Assembly: GCA_000437375.1 (NCBI GenBank)
Contig: FR898229.1
Location: forward strand, 45,697-109,330
Direction: 5' to 3'
Length of the DNA stretch: 63,634 nt
Source: Eubacterium sp. CAG:841
GTDB taxonomy: Bacteria > Bacillota > Clostridia > Oscillospirales > CAG-272
A program made the position numbers and the translations under genes. The notes beneath the pieces are model-generated. The model saw only the letters and a list, made by a program, of their open reading frames with translations, was not told where the DNA came from and did not search any database. Shown piece after piece: positions 11,258 through 19,996 of the stretch (its first letter is position 1; the number at the start of each line of letters is the position of its first letter).

Positions 11258-11330
11258 GCCCCATTAGCTCAGAAGGTAGAGCACATGACTTTTAATCATG
11301 GTGTCCGGAGTTCGACTCTCCGATGGAGAC
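11258..11330 (+). tRNA. tRNA-Lys (anticodon UUU), 3' part supplied by the integrated element (attL)
   Basis: Hand-folded cloverleaf. D arm is GCTC/GAGC. Anticodon arm is CATGA-CTTTTAA-TCATG. T arm is CGGAG-TTCGACT-CTCCG. The acceptor GCCCCAT/ATGGAGA has 2 mismatches, and no CCA is encoded at this copy. Confidence 0.85.
11289..11328 (+). repeat. attL core: 40-bp direct repeat (tRNA-Lys positions 32-71)
   Basis: CTTTTAATCATGGTGTCCGGAGTTCGACTCTCCGATGGAG is identical to 19215-19254. Confidence 0.95.
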
Positions 11331-11355
11331 GGGCATTTTTACAGCGCAGAAAAAA

Positions 11356-12246
11356 TCATGGTGTCCGCTTTTTGCCTATCGAATTATCAAGCGGACTGTA
11401 TTCATCGAAGTTACGAAGGACATAAGCCGGCGCGAAATGAACGTAATGCTCAACCATCTGCAAAGATGTATGACCGAGTATGGTCTTCAGTGTGAGCATA
11501 TCGCCGGAATTGACGAGATAGCCGGTAGCAAACGTGTGCCGGAGCAGATGAGCGTGCAGACGTTCGATTCCGGTGATCTTCTTGAGCTTGCGGAACATAT
11601 TCTTGAGAGTATCGACAGTGACGGCGGATCCGTCAGCCTTGAGGAACACCTGCGGCAGATCTGACTGCGGTCTGATCTGCAGGTAAGCCTGCAGCCGTTC
11701 GGCTGCCAGAGCGCCGATAGGAACATAGCGCTGCTTGTTACCCTTGCCGGTTACGAGAGCATAGCCTTCGGCAAGGTGCAGGCAGCTTGTCCGGAGCGTT
11801 ATGACCTCTTCTCTGCGAAGTCCGCTTCCGAGCATAAGCGATAGCATGGCAGCGTTGCGCTTGCCTTCAAAGCTGTCGGGAAGCGCGGCAAACAGCTTTT
11901 CTATCTCTGCCGGAGTGAGAACGTCCTTTACGGTCGCTCTCGCTTTCGGCAGTCTGAGCTGCGTCGGAATACATTCCTTAACGCAGCCGTTATTATAAAG
12001 CCAATTCAGAAAGGCACGGAGTGCGCGGACATGATCCTGAACGGTCACGCTGTTCTTGCTTTCGTCCTCAGTCAGAGCGATGACATATTCACGACAGAGC
12101 CGAAGCGTTATCTTCCCGCACTCTATATTGCCGACAAAGGCTATAAAGCCGTCTATCGTCTGTCGGTAGTAGGTTATAGTGTGCGGCGAGGATCCTCGAC
12201 ACTTATGGTCAAGGATATAATCATCAAATGCGTTCTTTATCGTCAT
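11356..12246 (-). CDS. int: Tyrosine recombinase / phage integrase
   Basis: C-terminal catalytic motifs 'HLLRHTFAT' and 'LGHTSLQMVEHY' are present, plus an N-terminal SAM-like domain. The gene is adjacent to attL. Confidence 0.9.
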   Translation of the reverse strand: MTIKNAFDDYILDHKCRGSSPHTITYYRQTIDGFIAFVGNIECGKITLRLCREYVIALTEDESKNSVTVQDHVRALRAFLNWLYNNGCVKECIPTQLRLPKARATVKDVLTPAEIEKLFAALPDSFEGKRNAAMLSLMLGSGLRREEVITLRTSCLHLAEGYALVTGKGNKQRYVPIGALAAERLQAYLQIRPQSDLPQVFLKADGSAVTVDTLKNMFRKLKKITGIERLHAHLLRHTFATGYLVNSGDMLTLKTILGHTSLQMVEHYVHFAPAYVLRNFDEYSPLDNSIGKKRTP

Positions 12247-13106
12247 CTTCCAACCTCTGCGACTGCGTATCGCCGGAACATAAGATCCTGCTTAAGATCC
12301 GAAACATTGCCGGTGTACTCTGTCAGATCGAATACCTGCAGAGCTTCATCGAGCGAACGATATCGCTTGACGGCGAGATAGTCGTTTTCATAGTCCGGAA
12401 AAAATGCGTCTCTTATGCGTTCCTCGCGAATAATGAATTCGGCGCGCTTCAGACCTTTTGAGCAGTAATATAAATGCGCTCCAAGCTCTTTTATACTCTT
12501 TGCAAGATTTTTGCTTATGTATTTCATTACATAATTTGAAGCGGCTTCTTTGCTTCTTACAGGCTCGAGGATCGTATAGCCGAACTTGTCCGCAAACTGG
12601 ATCCAATTGAATACTTCTTGTCCCTCTCTGAGCTTATCGACTATATACTTCGGCAATTTATTCGGAAACTGAATTCTGAACGCTTCATATTCTCTCTCTG
12701 AAAGTCCTTTGATAAAGCCGTGCATGTGCCAGGCTCCGTCCTGATGTTGCTCCGGCACTAACATGTACTTGATCTGTAAGCCGTGATTATGATTGTAGTC
12801 CTTTATGAACCTTGCAAGATCCTTGCGGAATTTTTCAAGATTGTATCTGTCATACTTCTTTGGTGAAAGCGTGAGCGTTACGAAGAACTGCCAATCGTTA
12901 CACATTGCAAGCTCGAAGATCGTGCTTCTTGCCCTTGAAATGTTGTTTTCAAGCTTTTCGTCGTTTACGTTTTCCTCTTGTTTTTCCCTGTCCGGAAACT
13001 CAAAAACTTTGTCAGTTTTATACACAACGAGGCGGTAATATCCGTCCGTATATTTCTTGATTTCTGCGAAATTACTGTAAAAGTGCCGATTATCCTTGCG
13101 GTACAT
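12243..13106 (-). CDS. HUH-superfamily rolling-circle replication initiator (Rep)
   Basis: Motif I is 'FFVTLTL', motif II (HUH) is 'WHMHGFI' and motif III is 'NYVMKYISK' with the catalytic Tyr. The stop overlaps the int start (ATGA). Confidence 0.75.
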   Translation of the reverse strand: MYRKDNRHFYSNFAEIKKYTDGYYRLVVYKTDKVFEFPDREKQEENVNDEKLENNISRARSTIFELAMCNDWQFFVTLTLSPKKYDRYNLEKFRKDLARFIKDYNHNHGLQIKYMLVPEQHQDGAWHMHGFIKGLSEREYEAFRIQFPNKLPKYIVDKLREGQEVFNWIQFADKFGYTILEPVRSKEAASNYVMKYISKNLAKSIKELGAHLYYCSKGLKRAEFIIREERIRDAFFPDYENDYLAVKRYRSLDEALQVFDLTEYTGNVSDLKQDLMFRRYAVAEVGR

Positions 13107-13192: not shown

Positions 13193-13291
13193 CGCGTGCG
13201 CACACGCGCACACGCACGCGAGGAGCTTTTATTGCAATTCTGTCGGCACTGCCGGGAGTGCCGGAGAGGGGGCTGCGCTCCCCCTCTCCGG
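13193..13291. promoter_or_regulatory. Candidate replication origin / packaging-signal region of the element
   Basis: There is a 28-nt perfectly alternating pyrimidine-purine tract (13193-13220). Two GC-rich hairpins follow: CGGCACT/AGTGCCG at 13244-13263 and a 12-bp stem CCGGAGAGGGGG/CCCCCTCTCCGG at 13261-13291. Confidence 0.4.
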
Positions 13292-14140
13292 ACTCTCCCA
13301 GGAAGCTTGCCCGAACATGTCCCGTTTGCACTCTTTGCGGACATCGAGAATGTATCTCGTCTTAAGCTTGTCCCACTTCCACCGGTCAGGTACGTCATGA
13401 GTGAAGCCAAGATCATATGCTTCGCTGTAAACCTTACTGTCGTAACGTTTTGTATATGGCATCCAAAAGAAGTAGGTGTTGAAGTCGTCCTTGCCTACGT
13501 CCTTTATGTTGACTATGTCGTTTGTGACGGAGATCTCTCTCCATTTCACCTTGCCAAAAGGCAGGAACAGACAGCGGTGAAGTCCGCGAAGCTCTATCAG
13601 AGCGTTGAAACGGCCTCTGATAGGCTTTGCTATGAAGTCTGAAGCCTGTTCGGTGAAATAGCAGTGTCCCGGTATCTCTGTGTCCATCCACTGCCTGTCA
13701 AAACGTATACTGACCTGCACGTTGTTTTTTACAGCAGGGATATCGAACTTATACTGATCACAGATCTGACCTACCTCGTCGATAAAGGTAATCGAATTTC
13801 TGTCTTTGAGCTTCTCGGCGAAAAGATGTTCCGTTGTCAGCACGTCTGACATTCTTTTGTTTCTGCGGTTGCCGAGCCTGATCGGTATGTTACTGTAAAC
13901 GTGCGGCTTGCTCTTTCTTTTGTCCTTTCGGAAAGGATGAAAGAAGCAGCTTCGGCGGTACACCGCATAGGCTTTCTTATACCATTTCACGACATGCATA
14001 ACTGCCATATAGGTCTTGCCGGATCCGAGTCCGCCGATAAAACAGGTGAGGTACTCCTGCGGTATCGGCTTGCTCAGGATGATCGAAACGACAAGCCAGA
14101 CTATGAACACGCCGGCGATTATTATCAATGCGGCTTTCAT
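13229..14140 (-). CDS. Zot/pI-like P-loop ATPase (filamentous-phage assembly protein)
   Basis: Walker A is 'GGLGSGKTY' and Walker B is 'ITFIDEVGQ'. The size and position downstream of the coat genes match inovirus gene I. It has an N-terminal TM helix. Confidence 0.65.
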   Translation of the reverse strand: MKAALIIIAGVFIVWLVVSIILSKPIPQEYLTCFIGGLGSGKTYMAVMHVVKWYKKAYAVYRRSCFFHPFRKDKRKSKPHVYSNIPIRLGNRRNKRMSDVLTTEHLFAEKLKDRNSITFIDEVGQICDQYKFDIPAVKNNVQVSIRFDRQWMDTEIPGHCYFTEQASDFIAKPIRGRFNALIELRGLHRCLFLPFGKVKWREISVTNDIVNIKDVGKDDFNTYFFWMPYTKRYDSKVYSEAYDLGFTHDVPDRWKWDKLKTRYILDVRKECKRDMFGQASWESPERGSAAPSPALPAVPTELQ

Positions 14141-14694
14141 CAGTAGCTGTACACCTCGCCTTCATAGATGTGGCGGATCTTCAAACGCTCGAAATAGTTG
14201 TGCAGAAACAACTTGTTTTCGTCAGATATACCGTAAGACTCGGCAGCGTCCTCAAGATTGTACATAAGGAACGACAGGTGCTGATAGCTCCAAGCAGAGT
14301 TCGGATCGTCCAAGAAGGCTTTGAAGCTCTTAAGGTTGAACTTTGTCCAAGTCTTCTTGAGGAAACTGTAATTTGCATTTATGTAGGCAAGCGAACTATC
14401 GTAAATCGCTTGGATCTTGGTAAGGTCATCTTCCGTTTGCTGTTCCGTTGAGAACGGCGAAAAAAGATTGTAAACGCTTGCAACGACTTTGTTTAACACA
14501 TTGGTAACATTGCCGCCGAACTTTATCACGCGGGCAAAGCTCATGCTGAGAAGCCCGGCATTTATATCACGGCATTCCGTAAGGTCAAGCTGCGGAGAAG
14601 TGGCATCGAACGTGTAATCATAGGAGGAAGCAAAGCCGAACAATACGGCAAGAATCACGCAACCTATAAGGAAAAAACAAAGCGCTTTATTCAT
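14140..14694 (-). CDS. Element-encoded membrane-anchored protein (pVI-position, unknown function)
   Basis: Start at the ATG at 14694 (MNKALCFFLIGCVILAVLFGF). One N-terminal TM segment. The stop overlaps the Zot start (TGATG). Confidence 0.55.
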   Translation of the reverse strand: MNKALCFFLIGCVILAVLFGFASSYDYTFDATSPQLDLTECRDINAGLLSMSFARVIKFGGNVTNVLNKVVASVYNLFSPFSTEQQTEDDLTKIQAIYDSSLAYINANYSFLKKTWTKFNLKSFKAFLDDPNSAWSYQHLSFLMYNLEDAAESYGISDENKLFLHNYFERLKIRHIYEGEVYSY

Positions 14695-14699
14695 AAAGA

Positions 14700-17024
14700 T
14701 CAACCGCCTTTCGAAACTTTCAGTATAATGATCACCGCACCGCCGATAGCTATAATGCCGATTATCGTAAGCAGCGTAACGCCGCCTACGGAAATGTTGG
14801 ATCCTACATAAAGCGCCGAGCCGGTGAACGCGCCGAGTATTTTTGTAACAAAATCGGCAACGCCGGAATCTGACGATTTATTTTTCTGATAATTTATGCC
14901 GGCTTGCTTGCCGGCTGTAAAACTTACGTCGTCATATGTATCGTTATCATTATCCACGACGTGGATCAGGCTGCAGGCTCCGGATCCGTTGCCTGCGGTA
15001 TAGCCGGCTGAATATGCCGAATCGTCATAGCCGTCGTTATTCTTATCCACGACGTGCGTGTCAAGGCAGACATCTATCTGTATTGTGTTACTGTATTTAT
15101 CGCCACTGTCGGTCGTTTCTACAAGTCTGAACTGTACCCACTTGCTGTTATGGGCTTTCTCGTAATTCCAATCATAACTGTCTATTTCCCAAAAGCCGTC
15201 CGTATAATCAGTAGAATTTGGAAGAGGCGTCCAACCGTCGTCTGTCAGATAGTCCTGATACGTCATATACTCTATATACACGGAGTTGCTGTCTTTTATT
15301 TTTCTCCAAGAAAGCTGTCCTTGCGAGTACGAAAGCAACGGCGATGCTGTGGAAGCTGTTGCAGCTCCACTGTTATACCCTGCTGTATAACTTGAGTCGT
15401 CATAGCCGTCGTTATTTGTGTCCGTAACGTGTGTTTTGTCACAAGCTCCGGCGGCAAGCGCAGCCTGATATTCAGCTTCGGTGTAATAGCGTATTGTCGG
15501 CATTGTATAGCCTGTCAATACTTGTTTGCTTTTAGAGCATATTATATCGTCGCAAGAATATATAAAATCCCCCCATGTATCAGGAGCATAAGGCGAAATT
15601 ACAGAAAGCGTACCGTTGCCATCGGTTGTATCATACAGACACAAAAAACTCTGTGATCCGGATGAAGTCGAACCGGATGAATCGGTCGTATACGAAAAGC
15701 AAACGCGAACAGTGACAAAAAACTTTTCGGGAGTATAAAAAGACCAACCAGTAACTGTATCAATGCTTGAACCAACCGGCGTAGTATTATCATAATTCTT
15801 TTTATCTGTTATATTAAAGAACGGCGCCAAGTCGGTAATCCTATTCGGTTGAATATCTTCAACAGGCGAAGTGTGCGAAAGCGAATAAACATCATAAACG
15901 CCGACACCGTTATTCTCATCAACATAAAACCGCCCGTAGCTTTTTGCAGAAGTGGATTTTACACTAAAATACGGAAAAGCGTTTTGCGTTATTTGTTGCA
16001 GTCCACTTGACTTCTCTATTTTGCAATAATCGAAATATGTAGCATCGCTATTTACCAAGAGCAGATGATAATAAGTATCATCGATAAAAATGCGAGAAGT
16101 TTTATAGATATAATAATCGTCAAAGTATTCATAACAAGGCAGATTAGAAACTTTGGTATATGAATTCAAATAGATTGTGGAAGTAGTGGACGAAGTGTTG
16201 GAAGAAAACGCATTGATAATAGCCGACATAGGCACCGAATAAGTATAAAGAGAGCTGGTTTTATGATAAGAAGTTGAATAACCATACTTTGAAGAGCTGT
16301 AATCAACTCCGTAAAAATACAAGCAAGAGTTATAATAAACAACGTCATTTACACCGAAATAGTATGATTTACCGGAAGTATGCTTCACATATATAATGTC
16401 ACGAGCCAAAGTAGTATCACCGACATGATAACGACCTATATAAAGAGTATCTTCGTCATAATCAAAATCCATTGAGACAAAGTAATAATAATCACCGTAT
16501 TTGAAAGAATAGTTTAAGTCGTTATACCAAGCGCCAGGGAAAAAGCTTGAAGTTCTTGTATATAAATTCAAGTTGGAAAGATTTTCGGGAGTTTCGGCAA
16601 GAGTAAGACGACCGCCAAGCACATATGAAGAAGACATCGAAGTAAAATAATATTTTGTTGTGGATGAAGAAGGGTATGAAGAACCAGCAGAATTAACTTG
16701 TGTAATCCCTATTGTGTGTTCTCCTGTGGTAAGCTTGTCGCAATACGCAAGTGTTCCTACGTATTCGGAAACAGGACCGACAATATCAACTTTGAAATTG
16801 TTTCCGACAATCTCGCCGTCAACTGTAAAATACAAACCAATACAAGAGCTATCCCAAGCCGTAACCTTTGCGGTAAGCTGTCCGTTTTGAGGAATAAATT
16901 CATATGAAACAGCCGTAGAAATAGGCTCTGATACCGCCGAAACCGTCAGACTGCCGGCTACGGTCAGAGCGAGGACAAGCACGGCGGTGATAAGCGCCGC
17001 AACCCTTTTATTTTTCTTTGACAT
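14700..17024 (-). CDS. Large secreted, C-terminally anchored protein (pIII-like adsorption/minor coat candidate)
   Basis: The ATG at 17024 sits 8 nt after GGAGG. It has a signal peptide 'VAALITAVLVLALTVAGSLTVSA' and a C-terminal TM 'VTLLTIIGIIAIGGAVIIIL' followed by KVSKGG. Three 'HV.D.NNDGYDD' repeats are present. Confidence 0.65.
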   Translation of the reverse strand: MSKKNKRVAALITAVLVLALTVAGSLTVSAVSEPISTAVSYEFIPQNGQLTAKVTAWDSSCIGLYFTVDGEIVGNNFKVDIVGPVSEYVGTLAYCDKLTTGEHTIGITQVNSAGSSYPSSSTTKYYFTSMSSSYVLGGRLTLAETPENLSNLNLYTRTSSFFPGAWYNDLNYSFKYGDYYYFVSMDFDYDEDTLYIGRYHVGDTTLARDIIYVKHTSGKSYYFGVNDVVYYNSCLYFYGVDYSSSKYGYSTSYHKTSSLYTYSVPMSAIINAFSSNTSSTTSTIYLNSYTKVSNLPCYEYFDDYYIYKTSRIFIDDTYYHLLLVNSDATYFDYCKIEKSSGLQQITQNAFPYFSVKSTSAKSYGRFYVDENNGVGVYDVYSLSHTSPVEDIQPNRITDLAPFFNITDKKNYDNTTPVGSSIDTVTGWSFYTPEKFFVTVRVCFSYTTDSSGSTSSGSQSFLCLYDTTDGNGTLSVISPYAPDTWGDFIYSCDDIICSKSKQVLTGYTMPTIRYYTEAEYQAALAAGACDKTHVTDTNNDGYDDSSYTAGYNSGAATASTASPLLSYSQGQLSWRKIKDSNSVYIEYMTYQDYLTDDGWTPLPNSTDYTDGFWEIDSYDWNYEKAHNSKWVQFRLVETTDSGDKYSNTIQIDVCLDTHVVDKNNDGYDDSAYSAGYTAGNGSGACSLIHVVDNDNDTYDDVSFTAGKQAGINYQKNKSSDSGVADFVTKILGAFTGSALYVGSNISVGGVTLLTIIGIIAIGGAVIIILKVSKGG

Positions 17025-17184
17025 GCAAAACACCTCCAAGCATTGATATAAGGAGCAGGATTATCGCAAGCGACATCCCATAGGTAAGAAGCTCCACTAC
17101 ATTTATACGCGCCATTACCTTTACGGCTGACGTCGCAATGTGCAGCGGAAGATCTACAAACAAAATTTTAAGCACGTTCATCAT
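17008..17184 (-). CDS. Small hydrophobic protein (minor coat candidate)
   Basis: 58 aa counted from the ATG at 17184, which overlaps the upstream stop (ATGA). It has one clear TM segment, 'GMSLAIILLLISMLGGV'. Confidence 0.45.
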   Translation of the reverse strand: MMNVLKILFVDLPLHIATSAVKVMARINVVELLTYGMSLAIILLLISMLGGVLHVKEK

Positions 17185-17486
17185 CGCCTTTTTGTCACCA
17201 CCCATACCACAAGGAATATAGGCAGGAACACCACAAGCGATGTTGTTGCCATTGTAAACAGCACGATAAGACTTGAATTGTCCCTGATAACGTCTGCCGG
17301 GAAGATATACGCCCAGCAGTCATAGATTATGCTGTATATATTGCTCGTCAGATCTGTCTCTGTCTCCGTCGCTTCGGCTGCCGTTTCTATCGGTTCGGAC
17401 ACATCCGTTCCACCGTCTGCGGCATATGCCGGAACACACATCAGAGCGAGGATCAGAACTGCGACAAGCGCCGTTTTTATTTTCAT
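17181..17486 (-). CDS. Coat-like protein: signal peptide, acidic N-terminus, TM, basic C-terminus (major coat candidate)
   Basis: Signal peptide 'MKIKTALVAVLILALMCVPAYA|ADGG'. The mature N-terminus is acidic and the C-terminus is 'VVFLPIFLVVWVVTKRR'. AGGAGG RBS. Confidence 0.6.
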   Translation of the reverse strand: MKIKTALVAVLILALMCVPAYAADGGTDVSEPIETAAEATETETDLTSNIYSIIYDCWAYIFPADVIRDNSSLIVLFTMATTSLVVFLPIFLVVWVVTKRR

Positions 17487-17506
17487 AATTACCTCCTGTT
17501 AGAACA

Positions 17507-17528
17507 AAAGCCCCGTTTCCGGGGCTTT
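17507..17528 (-). terminator. Intra-operon rho-independent terminator after the 183-aa coat-like gene
   Basis: On the minus strand: AAAGCCCCGGAAACGGGGCTTTTGTTCT. Confidence 0.65.
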
Positions 17529-17545
17529 ATTTGTTTTGATTTTTA

Positions 17546-18094
17546 TCAGCCTACTCTTGCACGTGACTTGATCCACTTCCATATGCCGAAGCCGGCACCG
17601 AGTATGATCGCAGTTATGATGAGTACGCCGAGTATTGAAAGCTCACCGGTATCCTTGTTGATAAAGATTACGTCGAATGTGCTTACTGCCGCGCCTGCTA
17701 CGGACGGAACGAACGATCCTACTCCGTCGCCGACTTCCGTCAGAATCTGCTTTATGAAGCCGTCTCCGGCTACCTGAAGCGAGATCATTGTGGAAGGTGC
17801 GCTCTTTGTGTAAGATGTAGCATTGCTTGCCGGCTTTGCTACTACCGTGACAAAGTATGTTCCGGATTTTACAAGATATCCGGAAAGGTCGACCGACGTG
17901 CCGGTTACCGTTGCTATAAGCGTATCGCCGGAATAAACGTCGTATGAAGCCGCATTTTCTACGGTCGTCCATGAAAGCGTTTTATCCGTAAGCGTTACGG
18001 TGGGTGCGGTAAGTGCAGACGCTGCGCTTACGCCGAGTATGGCAAAGCTGCAGATAACGAATGCGCAAAGGATAATTGCGAAAATCTTTTTCAT
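17546..18094 (-). CDS. Secreted Fn3/Ig-like domain protein with a pVIII-like C-terminal TM + basic tail
   Basis: The ATG at 18094 follows AAAGGAGG. Signal peptide 'MKKIFAIILCAFVICSFAILGVSAASA'. An 'LSWTTVENAASYDVY' Fn3-like module is present. The C-terminus is 'ILGVLIITAIILGAGFGIWKWIKSRARVG'. Confidence 0.65.
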   Translation of the reverse strand: MKKIFAIILCAFVICSFAILGVSAASALTAPTVTLTDKTLSWTTVENAASYDVYSGDTLIATVTGTSVDLSGYLVKSGTYFVTVVAKPASNATSYTKSAPSTMISLQVAGDGFIKQILTEVGDGVGSFVPSVAGAAVSTFDVIFINKDTGELSILGVLIITAIILGAGFGIWKWIKSRARVG

Positions 18095-18146
18095 TGAATT
18101 AACCTCCTTTCCTCGTTTGTTTATGTTAATTTCACGTGAAATCATA

Positions 18147-18437
18147 TTATGCCTTCTCCTTTCCCGGAAGAAGTCTGACTGCCGTAAGCTTCGGCTCTCT
18201 TACTCCGAACACCTGATATACAAGCTCGATCTCCTGATTGAGAAGATCCGAAAAGTTTTTTGTGCCTATAAGCGATTCTTCTTTGAAAGGCACCTTGACA
18301 GTGTCACAGAAAAATCCGTTTACCTCCGGCACTTCATTTGTGAAGACGTACAACTCTACGTTATCATACGTTACCTTGCGTCCGTCCTCCGATACGAAGT
18401 CGCCTTTCTTTCTTCTCCATCCCATTACTTTTATCAT
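18147..18437 (-). CDS. First gene of the structural operon, unknown function (gV-position; ssDNA-binding protein is only a positional guess)
   Basis: 96-aa soluble ORF with ATG and an AAGGA RBS. It lies directly upstream of the coat-like genes. Confidence 0.5.
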   Translation of the reverse strand: MIKVMGWRRKKGDFVSEDGRKVTYDNVELYVFTNEVPEVNGFFCDTVKVPFKEESLIGTKNFSDLLNQEIELVYQVFGVREPKLTAVRLLPGKEKA

Positions 18438-18492
18438 TGCTTTTCCTTTCTACCCGTGCGTTATGCTTTCGGGATTTTGTGTGTTATGATTT

Positions 18493-18566
18493 ATGACCTA
18501 TCGGTCATATCTGATATAATCATATTACTAATCAGTCATAATGTCAATATAATCTATCGGTCATAT
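18493..18566. promoter_or_regulatory. Divergent promoter/operator region of the element
   Basis: The 13-bp direct repeat CTATCGGTCATAT occurs at 18498-18510 and 18554-18566. The first copy lies within the palindrome ATGACC-N4-GGTCAT. On the plus strand there is TGATATAAT (18512-18520). On the minus strand there is TTGACA (18548-18543), an 18-nt spacer, then TATGAT. Confidence 0.5.
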
Positions 18567-18607
18567 GATAAAATTATTAGAATTAACAAAAACGGAGGAC
18601 GTTTATT

Positions 18608-18835
18608 GTGTACTATTACCAAAGATTGAAAGATTTAAGAGATGATGCGCACCTCAGACAAGATCAAATAGCGGTTATATTGAAAACTTGCCAGGAGCAG
18701 TACAGCAAGTACGAAAGAGGGGTGCAAGAGCTTCCCATGCATCACTTTATTACTCTTGCCAAGTTCTACAACGTATCGCTTGACTACCTTGCCGGACTTA
18801 TAGACGAGCCGCGCAAGCTGCACGATGAGAAATAA
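18608..18835 (+). CDS. XRE-family HTH regulator (prophage repressor candidate)
   Basis: GTG start 8 nt after GGAGG. 'QDQIAVILKTCQEQYSKYERG' is a typical Cro/CI HTH. It is divergent from the structural operon. Confidence 0.8.
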   Translation: MYYYQRLKDLRDDAHLRQDQIAVILKTCQEQYSKYERGVQELPMHHFITLAKFYNVSLDYLAGLIDEPRKLHDEK

Positions 18836-18865
18836 AAAAAGCGAAACGGAAGTTCCGTTTCGTTG
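18834..18865. terminator. Stem-loop after the repressor gene
   Basis: An A-run is followed by CGAAACGGAA/TTCCGTTTCG, a 10-bp inverted repeat with a minimal loop. The downstream T-run is weak. Confidence 0.45.
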
Positions 18866-19214
18866 GCCCGTGACCGGCTCTCTCCGGCGCACGCTCTGCG
18901 GAGCTTAGCTTCTCGATTCACTACAACCGCTACGGCGGGATTCTGAACGATCTGCGGATCGGGATAGTTCAAAGCAAAGCCAATTTACTCTGTTCAACAG
19001 GTCTTATCTCCATCTTGGGCGGGCGAACCTTATCGGCGGTTCTCCCTTGCCATCCCTCTCCCTCCGAGAACGCGATAACATTTGTGCCGATTTGAAGCGA
19101 ATACACGCGCTCTAAGCGTATTTTAAGACATAATCAAGCTGATTTGACATCCGATTAAGAAAGGGAGGCTTGTGGGGCTTCTAAACCCTCTGCGCCGACG
19201 GAAGCAAATTCAGG

Positions 19215-19254
19215 CTTTTAATCATGGTGTCCGGAGTTCGACTCTCCGATGGAG
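19215..19254 (+). repeat. attR core: 40-bp direct repeat, followed by the native tRNA 3' end (C-ACCA)
   Basis: Identical to 11289-11328. It continues as ...ATGGAG-CACCA and then a terminator. There is no tRNA 5' half upstream. Confidence 0.95.
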
Positions 19255-19345: not shown

Positions 19346-19627
19346 TTACGGGGTAAACTGTGAAACAAGCTCTTTCAGTTCGGCTATTGCCTCACGCATG
19401 ATGTCACATTGACTGCCCAATTTCAAAATTTGCCTTTTCATATCTTGCAACACTTCATCTGCAGGCCAAGCTTTTTTCTGTTCCTCGGCAAAAGTCTCCG
19501 GAAGTTCCGCTTTGTCCAATCCAAGCATAGCAAGATCGACGTTAAGTCCGATAAAAAGTCCCATTATAGTCTGATCGGTTTCGTCGATTTCTGCAAAAAG
19601 TTTTTCAATTTCTTCTTTAATCTTCAT
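19346..19627 (-). CDS. Hypothetical protein (acidic, helical)
   Basis: 93-aa ORF, divergent from the XRE gene. No recognisable motif. Confidence 0.5.
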   Translation of the reverse strand: MKIKEEIEKLFAEIDETDQTIMGLFIGLNVDLAMLGLDKAELPETFAEEQKKAWPADEVLQDMKRQILKLGSQCDIMREAIAELKELVSQFTP

Positions 19628-19768
19628 ATAAGAATGCCTGCTTTACATATTTATGGTCTTATTATAACATACATAAATACGTAAATCAAGTACATACGAA
19701 CGTATGAATGATATAATTTTTCAAAATGTACGCAATTTATGCGGGAAGCGGTGAAAAGGAGCGGCTTT

Positions 19769-19996
19769 ATGCACTGTTATCAAAGGTTGCGCGACTTAAG
19801 GGAAGACAAGGATTTAAGTCAGGGAAAAATTTCACAGCTTTTGAAAATATCTCAGCAGCACTACTCAATGTATGAAATGGGCAAGCGTGAGCTTCCGATG
19901 CATCATTTCGTTACCCTTGCAAAATTCTATAACGTATCGCTTGATTATCTTGCGGGACTTACAAACGAGCCGCGCGAGCTTTATAAAGACGAGTAA
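19769..19996 (+). CDS. XRE-family HTH regulator, paralog of the prophage repressor
   Basis: The ATG at 19769 follows AAAGGAG. By manual alignment, 47 of 75 positions are identical to the 18608-18835 product. The C-terminal halves are nearly identical. Confidence 0.8.
   Translation: MHCYQRLRDLREDKDLSQGKISQLLKISQQHYSMYEMGKRELPMHHFVTLAKFYNVSLDYLAGLTNEPRELYKDE

Follow-up and report, generated by a model that had tools for sequence, protein, structure and literature searches.

A 774-residue pIII-position protein of an inovirus-type prophage in Eubacterium sp. CAG:841: a probable adsorption protein with an exchangeable head and a conserved, repeat-bearing stalk

We analyzed a 63,634-nucleotide (nt) stretch of DNA from Eubacterium sp. 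CAG:841 (assembly GCA_000437375.1, contig FR898229.1, positions 45,697 to 109,330 of the forward strand), referred to here as the window and numbered from its first letter. Within it lies a small integrated filamentous phage, one gene of which encodes a 774-amino acid (aa) protein that is the subject of this study. The original prediction, made from the letters alone, had placed this protein in the position of the filamentous-phage protein pIII. Receptor-binding proteins of filamentous phages are understood for a few Gram-negative models only (Ff, CTXphi), and to our knowledge the adsorption proteins of many gut and environmental inoviruses carry no annotation.

The element is bounded by perfect 40-nt direct repeats at 11289-11328 and 19215-19254, of which there is no third copy in the window and none expected by chance. 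The two attachment (att) cores lie 7.9 kb apart, and all genes between them are on the minus strand, the repressor excepted. In order of transcription, they encode proteins of 96, 199, 101, 65, 774, and 187 aa, a 303-aa pI/Zot homolog, a 287-aa replication initiator (Rep), and a 296-aa integrase. The features of the element are as follows.

11289..11328 (+), attL, a 40-nt core within the 3' half of the tRNA-Lys(UUU) gene, which spans 11258-11330
11356..12246 (-), tyrosine integrase, 296 aa (Pfam Phage_integrase, 9.8e-35)
12243..13106 (-), rolling-circle replication initiator, 287 aa (Pfam REP_ORF2-G2P, 1.6e-12; PHROG 3419, 2.1e-13)
13229..14140 (-), pI/Zot-like assembly ATPase, 303 aa, with an N-terminal transmembrane (TM) segment and the Walker A motif GGLGSGKT
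14140..14703 (-), 187-aa protein with an N-terminal TM segment in the pVI position, with start/stop overlaps with both neighbors
14700..17024 (-), whole gene of the 774-aa pIII-position protein, from the list of open reading frames (ORFs) and their translation
17008..18437 (-), upstream small-protein genes (96, 199, 101, and 65 aa), from the ORF list
18492..18835 (+), immunity region, with two 19-nt palindromes (18492-18510 and 18548-18566) and an XRE repressor gene (18608-18835)
19215..19254 (+), attR, a second, identical copy of the 40-nt core, behind which lie the original tRNA 3' end (CACCA) and a terminator hairpin

Because att repeats at a tRNA-Lys gene, an integrase, a rolling-circle Rep, and a pI/Zot homolog occur together, and because the same phage is found elsewhere as phage-only contigs, the element is a 7.9-kb inovirus-type (Tubulavirales) prophage at the tRNA-Lys gene. 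It carries the marks by which inoviruses are recognized, namely a pI/Zot ATPase and a rolling-circle Rep in a small genome with a cluster of small TM proteins. In tblastn searches, the 303-aa protein matches genes annotated as Zot (pI) in circular Inoviridae genomes that come from rodent faeces (E down to 8e-15), and it weakly matches the PHROG Zot-like family (1.1e-3). The phage-only contigs come from other samples, measure 7.2-7.7 kb, and are 97-98% identical to the window prophage; two of them, L002 and L004, end inside the att core, and a circularity check found an overlap of their ends of 8 nt or none. The pI/Zot homolog consists of a single N-terminal TM segment followed by the Walker A domain, without a C-terminal extracytoplasmic domain, and there is no secretin gene among the ORFs of the 7.9-kb element. 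This architecture and the absence of a secretin gene bear on how particles would leave a diderm host.

Upstream of the 774-aa protein, the 101-aa product is major-coat-like, with a signal peptide, an acidic N terminus, a TM segment, and a basic TKRR end, and it has a homolog in the locus L010 (3.2e-8). The 65-aa protein likewise contains a TM segment. L008 carries, at the equivalent place, a homolog of the downstream 187-aa protein (E 1.6e-10). Pfam, NCBIfam, and PHROG scans returned no family matches for the small upstream proteins, apart from a weak match of the 199-aa product to a PHROG labeled 'major tail protein' (7.5e-4). In that product (17546-18145, minus strand), an FN3-like 'LSW...Y' stretch lies between a signal peptide and a C-terminal TM segment with a basic tail, so that we regard it as a possible second minor virion protein exposed at the surface. 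We considered it as a paralog of the 774-aa protein and set this aside, as the similarity is not significant (E 0.69). The 774-aa protein is in the pIII position because its gene is preceded by the coat-like genes and followed, two genes on, by pI. The original prediction of a pIII position and pIII-like topology is therefore borne out by a real inovirus-type prophage in which gene order, signal peptide, and C-terminal TM segment all agree.

The gene runs from an ATG at 17024 to its stop codon at 14700 on the minus strand. An alternative TTG start exists at 17039, but we favor the 774-aa start because GGAGG lies 8 nt 5' of the ATG. Hydropathy shows an N-terminal hydrophobic stretch (aa 5-33) that follows the basic SKKNKR and contains a cleavage-type site between TVSA and VS, as well as one C-terminal TM segment (aa ~746-768) followed by the tail KVSKGG, just as had been predicted. 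The first 500 aa are rich in Ser (14.0%), Tyr (10.6%), and Thr (10.4%) and match no family in library searches, again as described beforehand. From the N to the C terminus, we divide the protein into the following parts.

16935..17024 (-), Sec-type signal peptide, aa 1-30, with the n-region SKKNKR, a hydrophobic core, and the TVSA/VS site (hydropathy)
16605..16934 (-), Ig-like beta domain, aa 31-140, all-beta in the AlphaFold2 (AF2) model with a predicted local distance difference test score (pLDDT) of 70-89
15510..16604 (-), Tyr/Ser/Thr-rich, beta-rich head, aa 141-505, a hypervariable cassette and the proposed receptor-binding region
15444..15509 (-), conserved junction helix (R)YYTEAEYQAALAAG, aa 506-527, with invariant or near-invariant columns, an AF2 helix and a recombination boundary
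15366..15443 (-), repeat 1, CDKTHVTDTNNDGYDDSSYTAGYNSG, aa 528-553
15069..15347 (-), FN3-like beta-sandwich, aa 560-652 (AF2 and Foldseek)
14991..15068 (-), repeat 2, CLDTHVVDKNNDGYDDSAYSAGYTAG, aa 653-678
14898..14975 (-), repeat 3, CSLIHVVDNDNDTYDDVSFTAGKQAG, aa 684-709, the copy kept in most of the distant relatives
14790..14879 (-), conserved pre-anchor helix (..GVADFVTKILGAFTGSALYVGSNIS..), aa 716-745, an AF2 helix with pLDDT 72-88
14700..14789 (-), C-terminal TM anchor, aa 746-768, with KVSKGG and the stop codon (hydropathy and AF2 helix)

A regular-expression scan recovered three copies of C-x3-HV-x-D-x-[ND]ND-x-YDD, beginning at aa 528, 653, and 684. In full, the copies read C-x3-H-V-x-D-x-[ND]-N-D-[GT]-Y-D-D-x-x-[YF]-[ST]-A-G, confirming at aa 528-553, 653-678, and 684-709 the three Cys-anchored repeats claimed for the C-terminal third. 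At the DNA level, they form a 61-nt direct-repeat family with 67-75% identity. Aligned by Smith-Waterman against the rest of the protein, copy 1 scores 106, far beyond chance because 500 shuffles gave a mean of 34, a standard deviation of 4.6, and a maximum of 54.

To place the protein among its relatives, we combined a word-indexed protein search, which returned 11 relative clusters only, with a HMMER profile search of 1.84 billion representative proteins, which returned 31 relatives at E<=1e-3. The family is rare and without annotation. Pfam, NCBIfam, and PHROG gave no significant family for the whole protein or for its isolated modules, the sole library match being PHROG 27357 (function not annotated) at E 0.0075, and searches of Protein Data Bank (PDB) sequences with phmmer and with a profile gave nothing meaningful for the whole protein or its C-terminal part. 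We inspected the genomic contexts of both close and distant relatives (L001-L005, L008-L010, and L012). Each of these loci presents small ORFs, the relative, a membrane protein of 184-316 aa (438 aa in L010), and then a pI homolog, which is adjacent or a few genes on (phmmer E 1e-15 to 3e-53) and often has Rep and integrase next to it. For the relatives in L005, L008, L009, L010, and L012, the gene order is the same as in the window. No non-phage adhesin family matches the protein as a whole, and its whole-protein homologs lie in inovirus-like clusters rather than only outside mobile elements. The relative in L005 (contig k141_109756, 4408-14213), the 889-aa tip protein P0007, sits on a different inovirus-like backbone that has many ORFs of 70-120 aa, a 339-aa protein with a faint RNA_helicase match, and a pI homolog at 13233-14213.

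Region-wise identities to the window protein, computed for eleven homologs, show that its parts do not evolve together. Three homologs illustrate the range.

P0003: signal peptide 97%, Ig-like 97%, head 27%, stalk 96%, anchor 100%
P0005: signal peptide 100%, Ig-like 20%, head 15%, stalk 95%, anchor 100%
P0007: signal peptide 77%, Ig-like 91%, head 28%, stalk 64%, anchor 28%

The signal peptide is 77-100% identical across all homologs. Head identity is only 15-28% in nine of the eleven, reaching 82-98% in P0001 and P0002 alone, whereas the same nine retain stalks that are 64-97% identical and C-terminal anchors that are mostly 85-100% identical. The pre-anchor helix is common even to the distant relatives P0015-P0038. 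Identities of the Ig-like domain are uneven, at 96-97% (P0001 and P0003), 91% (P0007), 51-65% (P0002, P0004, P0006, P0008, and P0011), and 20-21% (P0005, P0009, and P0010), so this module shuffles independently. P0007 combines a 91% identical Ig-like domain with a 28% identical anchor, on its different phage backbone, and therefore points to domain-level exchange between distinct phages.

The exchange can be seen directly at the DNA level. In L003, the host flank 3' of attR is 99% identical to the window and the prophage itself is 96.6-98% identical, yet window positions 15486-16934 (aa 31-513) find no DNA similarity in L003 or L004, whose prophages are otherwise ~97-98% identical. L003 also lacks repeat 1, which is deleted, and L001 shows the same pattern. 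The boundaries of the swap are the end of the signal peptide and the conserved helix YYTEAEYQAAL; similarity to L001 and L003 resumes at the junction helix (15444-15509), and the stalk and anchor are 90-100% identical in these otherwise 97-98% identical prophages. A cassette of aa 31-513 has thus been swapped cleanly between near-identical prophages, which strongly suggests a role in host range. Exchange of the distal part with retention of the backbone-matching anchor is how a receptor-binding virion protein should behave, and this, although indirect, is our chief evidence for the function that we propose. Because the head is swapped while stalk and anchor are conserved, it is probably the head and not the repeats that sets host range. 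The earlier suggestion that the protein may define host range is backed in this form for the head cassette; the repeats, to which attention had been drawn, belong to the conserved stalk and not to the variable part.

Considering position, topology, and modular conservation, we conclude that the 774-aa protein is probably the adsorption or tip protein of the integrated filamentous phage, a functional analog of Ff pIII. We think it very improbable that it is a surface protein of the lysogen, such as an adhesin or a superinfection-exclusion factor, and not a virion component. A signal peptide and a C-terminal TM segment would fit surface anchoring equally well, and marine secreted proteins outside phages also carry the repeat (see below). 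However, in every relative examined, the gene is part of the structural and assembly operon, whose stops and starts overlap, and has coat-like genes on one side and the pVI-position and pI genes on the other; moreover, an 8-kb inovirus needs an adsorption protein, for which we see no better candidate, and the anchor goes with the phage backbone whereas the head is shuffled, as it would be in a receptor-binding protein attached to the virion. It would be an inovirus adsorption protein from a family without annotation, with a stalk repeat that has no Pfam, PHROG, or NCBIfam match, and the locus would offer a well-bounded natural system in which to map what determines host range and to redirect filamentous phages to other hosts.

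We next turned to structure prediction. The full-length AF2 model is poor (mean pLDDT 53), with some confidence only in aa ~33-135 (Ig-like, pLDDT 70-89) and aa 560-650, and Foldseek searches with it were uninformative, with TM-scores of ~0.1 and a vague beta-propeller and FN3 theme. We dropped a beta-propeller for the Tyr-rich head, as an hhalign self-comparison found no significant internal repeat (probability 0.2%); across library scans, AF2, Foldseek, and hhalign self-comparison, the head has no family or fold match. A second AF2 model, of aa 506-774 from a 23-sequence alignment, resolves a sandwich at aa 560-655 (pLDDT 71-93), helices at aa 699-714 and 721-743, and a TM helix at aa 751-771. 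Foldseek matches aa ~560-652 to FN3 domains with probabilities up to 1.0 and target-normalized TM-scores of 0.4-0.56, although with weak E values (>= 3.5e-3) and root-mean-square deviations of 4-6 Å. There is no Pfam fn3 match for aa 560-652, and against viral models Foldseek gave generic FN3-like matches only. It is reasonable to call this module FN3-like at the level of its predicted fold, and the Fn3-like module foreseen between copies 1 and 2 is upheld to that extent.

Among the relatives, the number of repeat copies varies from 0 to 6, with domains inserted between copies, and repeat 1 is absent in P0007-P0010. Because of this variable number and these insertions, we regard the repeat as a linker or stalk element. 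To determine which of its residues are conserved, we compiled 36 repeat instances from diverse relatives and numbered the loop from its first Asp (D1).

Position 1: D in 36/36
Position 3: N or D in 36/36
Position 5: D in 36/36
Position 6: G in 26/36, otherwise T, L, D, or N
Position 7: Y or F in 33/36
Position 8: D in 34/36
Position 9: D in 36/36
Position 11: S in 33/36
Position 12: aromatic in 36/36
Position 14: A in 30/36
Position 15: G in 36/36
Position 19: G in 28/36

The loop resembles the linear motif Dx[DN]xDG, which Rigden et al. (2011) found in at least 16 unrelated calcium-binding contexts, the EF-hand included, most of them extracellular (PMC3123361). By its definition, positions 1, 3, and 5 contribute their side chains and the residue that follows the Gly its carbonyl, and a further acidic residue is required later in the sequence (PMC3123361). 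Copies 1 (DTNNDG) and 2 (DKNNDG) match it, as do 26 of the 36 family instances, and D8 (34/36) and D9 (36/36) can supply the later acidic residue that the definition requires. When a profile of the repeat was run against PDB sequences, it retrieved almost only EF-hand loops (calsensin, polcalcins, CDPK) and engineered lanthanide-binding tags (YIDTNNDGW/Y). From these sequence features, we put the proposal that the repeats bind Ca2+ at an even balance. The near-match to lanthanide-binding tags makes metal binding directly testable by Tb3+ luminescence, and if Ca2+ binding is true, the repeat would be a new context for Dx[DN]xDG as well as a sequence signature for tip proteins of uncultured inoviruses.

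The repeat does not, however, belong to any of the classical families. We ruled out a canonical EF-hand, as position 8 is Asp, position 12 is aromatic rather than Glu or Asp, and no Pfam EF-hand match exists; membership in dockerin type I or TSP3 was likewise ruled out, since there is no Pfam match, no acidic position 12, and no TSP3 Cys pattern. On isolated repeats, the EF-hand, TSP_3, and dockerin Pfam models gave no match even at E<=10. The initial comparison with thrombospondin type 3 and dockerin motifs therefore holds for the generic Dx[DN]xDG or EF-hand-loop pattern, but not for the families themselves, neither of which matches and whose acidic position 12 is missing.

The tail of the unit, S-[YF]-x-A-G-x3-G, contains a G-x3-G pattern, which opens a different reading of the repeat. 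In distant relatives, this tail extends into long G-Y-x-x-G-x3-G tracts, one of which resembles Pfam Yae1_N (deca-GX3) at 2.2e-5, below threshold. The repeats might then bind no metal at all and act as structural or oligomerization elements, with G-x3-G helices packing copies of the tip protein, or as spacers, the Asp-rich loop being a solubility or turn motif. The invariance of G15 together with G19 in 28/36 instances speaks for this, as do the replacement of loop Gly6 in 10/36 and the G-[YF]-x-x-G-x3-G tracts of distant relatives and of the pIII-position proteins of bajarodino viruses, some of which have no DGYDD loop. We nevertheless consider a metal-free role rather unlikely. D1, [ND]3, D5, and D9 are invariant in very divergent proteins, which is hard to explain without ligand binding, and in the PDB the repeat is matched best by calcium and lanthanide loops; the two roles are also compatible with one another.

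A further feature of the repeat is a Cys at -7 combined with a His at -3 relative to D1, seen in 13 of the 36 instances, including all three window copies, and often in the first repeat after a globular domain. This co-occurrence could indicate a transition-metal site (e.g. Zn2+) made of Cys-x3-His and Asp, or a redox or disulfide switch, in place of a Ca2+ loop, and many relatives have only one such Cys, which argues against obligatory disulfides from repeat to repeat. We hold such a site or switch to be very unlikely, as the other 23 instances keep the Asp pattern without the Cys and His, marine proteins with the motif have their Cys at another offset, and no metal-site family is matched.

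Returning to the adsorption protein as a whole, we propose the following mechanism. Sec would export the protein, and its C-terminal helix would keep it in the membrane until, at assembly, the conserved pre-anchor helix and the TM segment would mediate its incorporation at the end of the filament, with the 187-aa neighbor perhaps taking the role of pVI. Binding of the host receptor would fall to aa 31-513, which comprise the distal Ig-like domain and the Tyr-rich head, and exchange of this whole part as a cassette between phages would retarget them. Between head and anchor, we envisage a stalk made of a helix and then three units, each composed of a strand, a D-x-N-x-D-G-Y-D-D loop, and a G-x3-G helix; the FN3-like spacer would separate unit 1 from unit 2. 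The loops would most likely bind Ca2+ in the manner of Dx[DN]xDG sites. They would make the extracellular stalk stiffer and would stand where Ff pIII has its Gly-rich linkers.

Several observations weigh against this proposal. Homology to Ff pIII, whether to N1/N2 or to the C domain, is ruled out, as hhalign against M13 g3p gives a probability of 0.4% and there is no Pfam g3p match. A tblastn search of 50,697 phage records with the C-terminal 269 aa gave no match, and IMG/VR contains no relative and no instance of the motif. The 199-aa protein, with its signal peptide, FN3-like stretch, and TM segment, could share the adsorption role or take it over. As to calcium, copy 3 (DNDNDT) has Thr in place of Gly and 10/36 instances lack the motif Gly, whereas all metal-binding examples in Rigden et al. 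had Gly at that position (PMC3123361). The individual PDB matches of the repeat profile, though coherent, are not significant (E 0.015-7), the three repeats fall below pLDDT 50 in AF2, and a pure Ca2+ model does not explain the Cys-x3-His that precedes 13/36 repeats.

A back-translated pattern of the motif found 72 loci in metagenome contigs. Approximately 16 of these encode proteins of the target family, with a signal peptide and a C-terminal TM segment, and the nine that are on longer DNA all carry a pI homolog (E 1e-62 to 1e-129). The remaining ~50 are on short, mostly marine-looking contigs and encode secreted proteins in which pentapeptide repeats (PF00805) are combined with an Ig-like domain of the bacterial-surface type (PF16403); they include L014, L017, L043, L048, L049, L051, L054, L059, and L079 together with about 40 others. 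In these marine proteins, which have no TM segment and no pI neighbor, the motif is found between domains and just ahead of a C-terminal segment, SGDLNLDGxxNVLDVVxLVNxILNP, one example of which matches Dockerin_1 below threshold (E 0.0062; 17.2 bits versus a cut-off of 22.9). The dockerin-like resemblance noted at the outset is thus echoed here, though indirectly. The search for the repeat beyond the window, suggested at the outset for other prophages, thus locates it in pI-linked phage loci but also shows that the motif is not phage-specific. Because it is present in marine secreted proteins, the repeat is a general extracellular inter-domain element and not a phage invention. We tentatively suggest, as a possibility only, that the 17-residue unit D-x-[ND]-x-D-G-Y-D-D-x-S-[YF]-x-A-G is an unrecognized extracellular Ca2+-binding module shared by phage tip proteins and marine proteins, a new Dx[DN]xDG context built of strand, loop, and G-x3-G helix. 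If so, it might serve the phage as a Ca2+-dependent rigid stalk or as an infection trigger.

Some further observations concern the borders of the prophage and its immunity. The tRNA-Lys gene rebuilt at attL (window 11258-11340) ends in ...GATGGAGAC, without CCA or terminator, and the phage-only contigs L002 and L004 have ~40 extra bases at that junction (GCACC and a terminator hairpin). Because these ~40 bases are missing in the window, its prophage seems to carry a small deletion beside attL. At the other end of the element, the XRE repressor gene is divergent from the minus-strand operon, and the palindromes lie in the intergenic region, where the operator-like sequence is TATGACCTATCGGTCATAT. 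The immunity region (18485-19026) is likewise without a DNA match in L003 and L004, which carry a different 90-aa helix-turn-helix gene, and the window and L003/L004 prophages look like hetero-immune variants of one phage. Just outside attR lie a 93-aa ORF (19346-19627, minus strand) and an 85-aa XRE gene (19739-19996, plus strand), both of which are kept in L001 and L003. This outside XRE is paralogous to that of the prophage, and in L003 the outside copy shares 77% DNA identity with the prophage XRE. Together with the small ORF, it may be what is left of a related, earlier element, or it may have been kept as an immunity gene.

Beyond the element, the flanking genes of the window include those for an AddA-type helicase, YfhO, an NFACT protein, and PFOR. 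L001 (CAVKJG010000002.1) is a syntenic locus with flanks 87-89% identical to the window and the same tRNA-Lys site. Its metagenome-assembled genome is labeled Sphaerochaetaceae bacterium (phylum Spirochaetota), so that the host here may be a member of that family. Roux et al. (2019) had only short, flank-less inovirus contigs for Spirochaetes and regarded it as uncertain whether the phylum has inoviruses (PMC6813254); should the label be correct, a host-anchored prophage in Spirochaetota would be of some extra interest.

Among known systems, Ff phages (M13/fd/f1) provide the functional comparison. As with pIII, the gene follows the coat genes and precedes a pVI-position gene and pI, and the protein has a Sec signal peptide, modular N-terminal domains with repeated linkers, a conserved C-terminal region, and one terminal TM helix with a short basic tail, along with a presumed role in adsorption and filament termination. 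It differs from pIII in size (774 aa versus 424 aa), in its linkers, which are DGYDD loop and G-x3-G units plus an FN3-like domain where Ff pIII has Gly-rich (GGGS) stretches, and in its head, which is made of Ig-like and Tyr-rich beta domains.

The repeat itself shares with Dx[DN]xDG loops an extracellular location and, in copies 1 and 2, a D-x-N-x-D-G followed by acidic residues. Unlike the EF-hand, it has Asp rather than Ile, Leu, or Val at position 8 and Tyr or Phe rather than Glu or Asp at position 12, and it is predicted to form a strand, a loop, and a short helix instead of a helix-loop-helix. Like dockerin type I (PF00404) and TSP3 (PF02412), it has a D-x-[ND]-x-D-G loop that is rich in Asp and Asn and leads into a helix. 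In the marine pentapeptide-repeat and Bact_surface_Ig-like proteins, the inter-domain unit D-x-[ND]-x-D-G-Y-D-D-x-S-[YF]-x-A-G is identical and stands immediately before a dockerin-like C-terminal segment. These proteins differ from the target in having no TM anchor, no pI neighbor, other domains, and another Cys offset, and they are not its homologs outside the motif.

As an element, the window prophage resembles the inovirus prophages of gut Enterocloster (PMC10061712) and the bajarodino virus genomes (PQ006122, PQ006164), which share a size of 5-8.5 kb and a pI/Zot homolog; the Enterocloster prophages agree with it in size, flanking direct repeats, and the pI marker (PMC10061712). The pIII-position proteins of the bajarodino viruses differ from the target in having no DGYDD loops and no phmmer match to it, but they have the same general build, with an N-terminal hydrophobic segment, a Tyr-rich variable part, G-Y-x-x-G tracts, and a conserved C-terminal TM segment.

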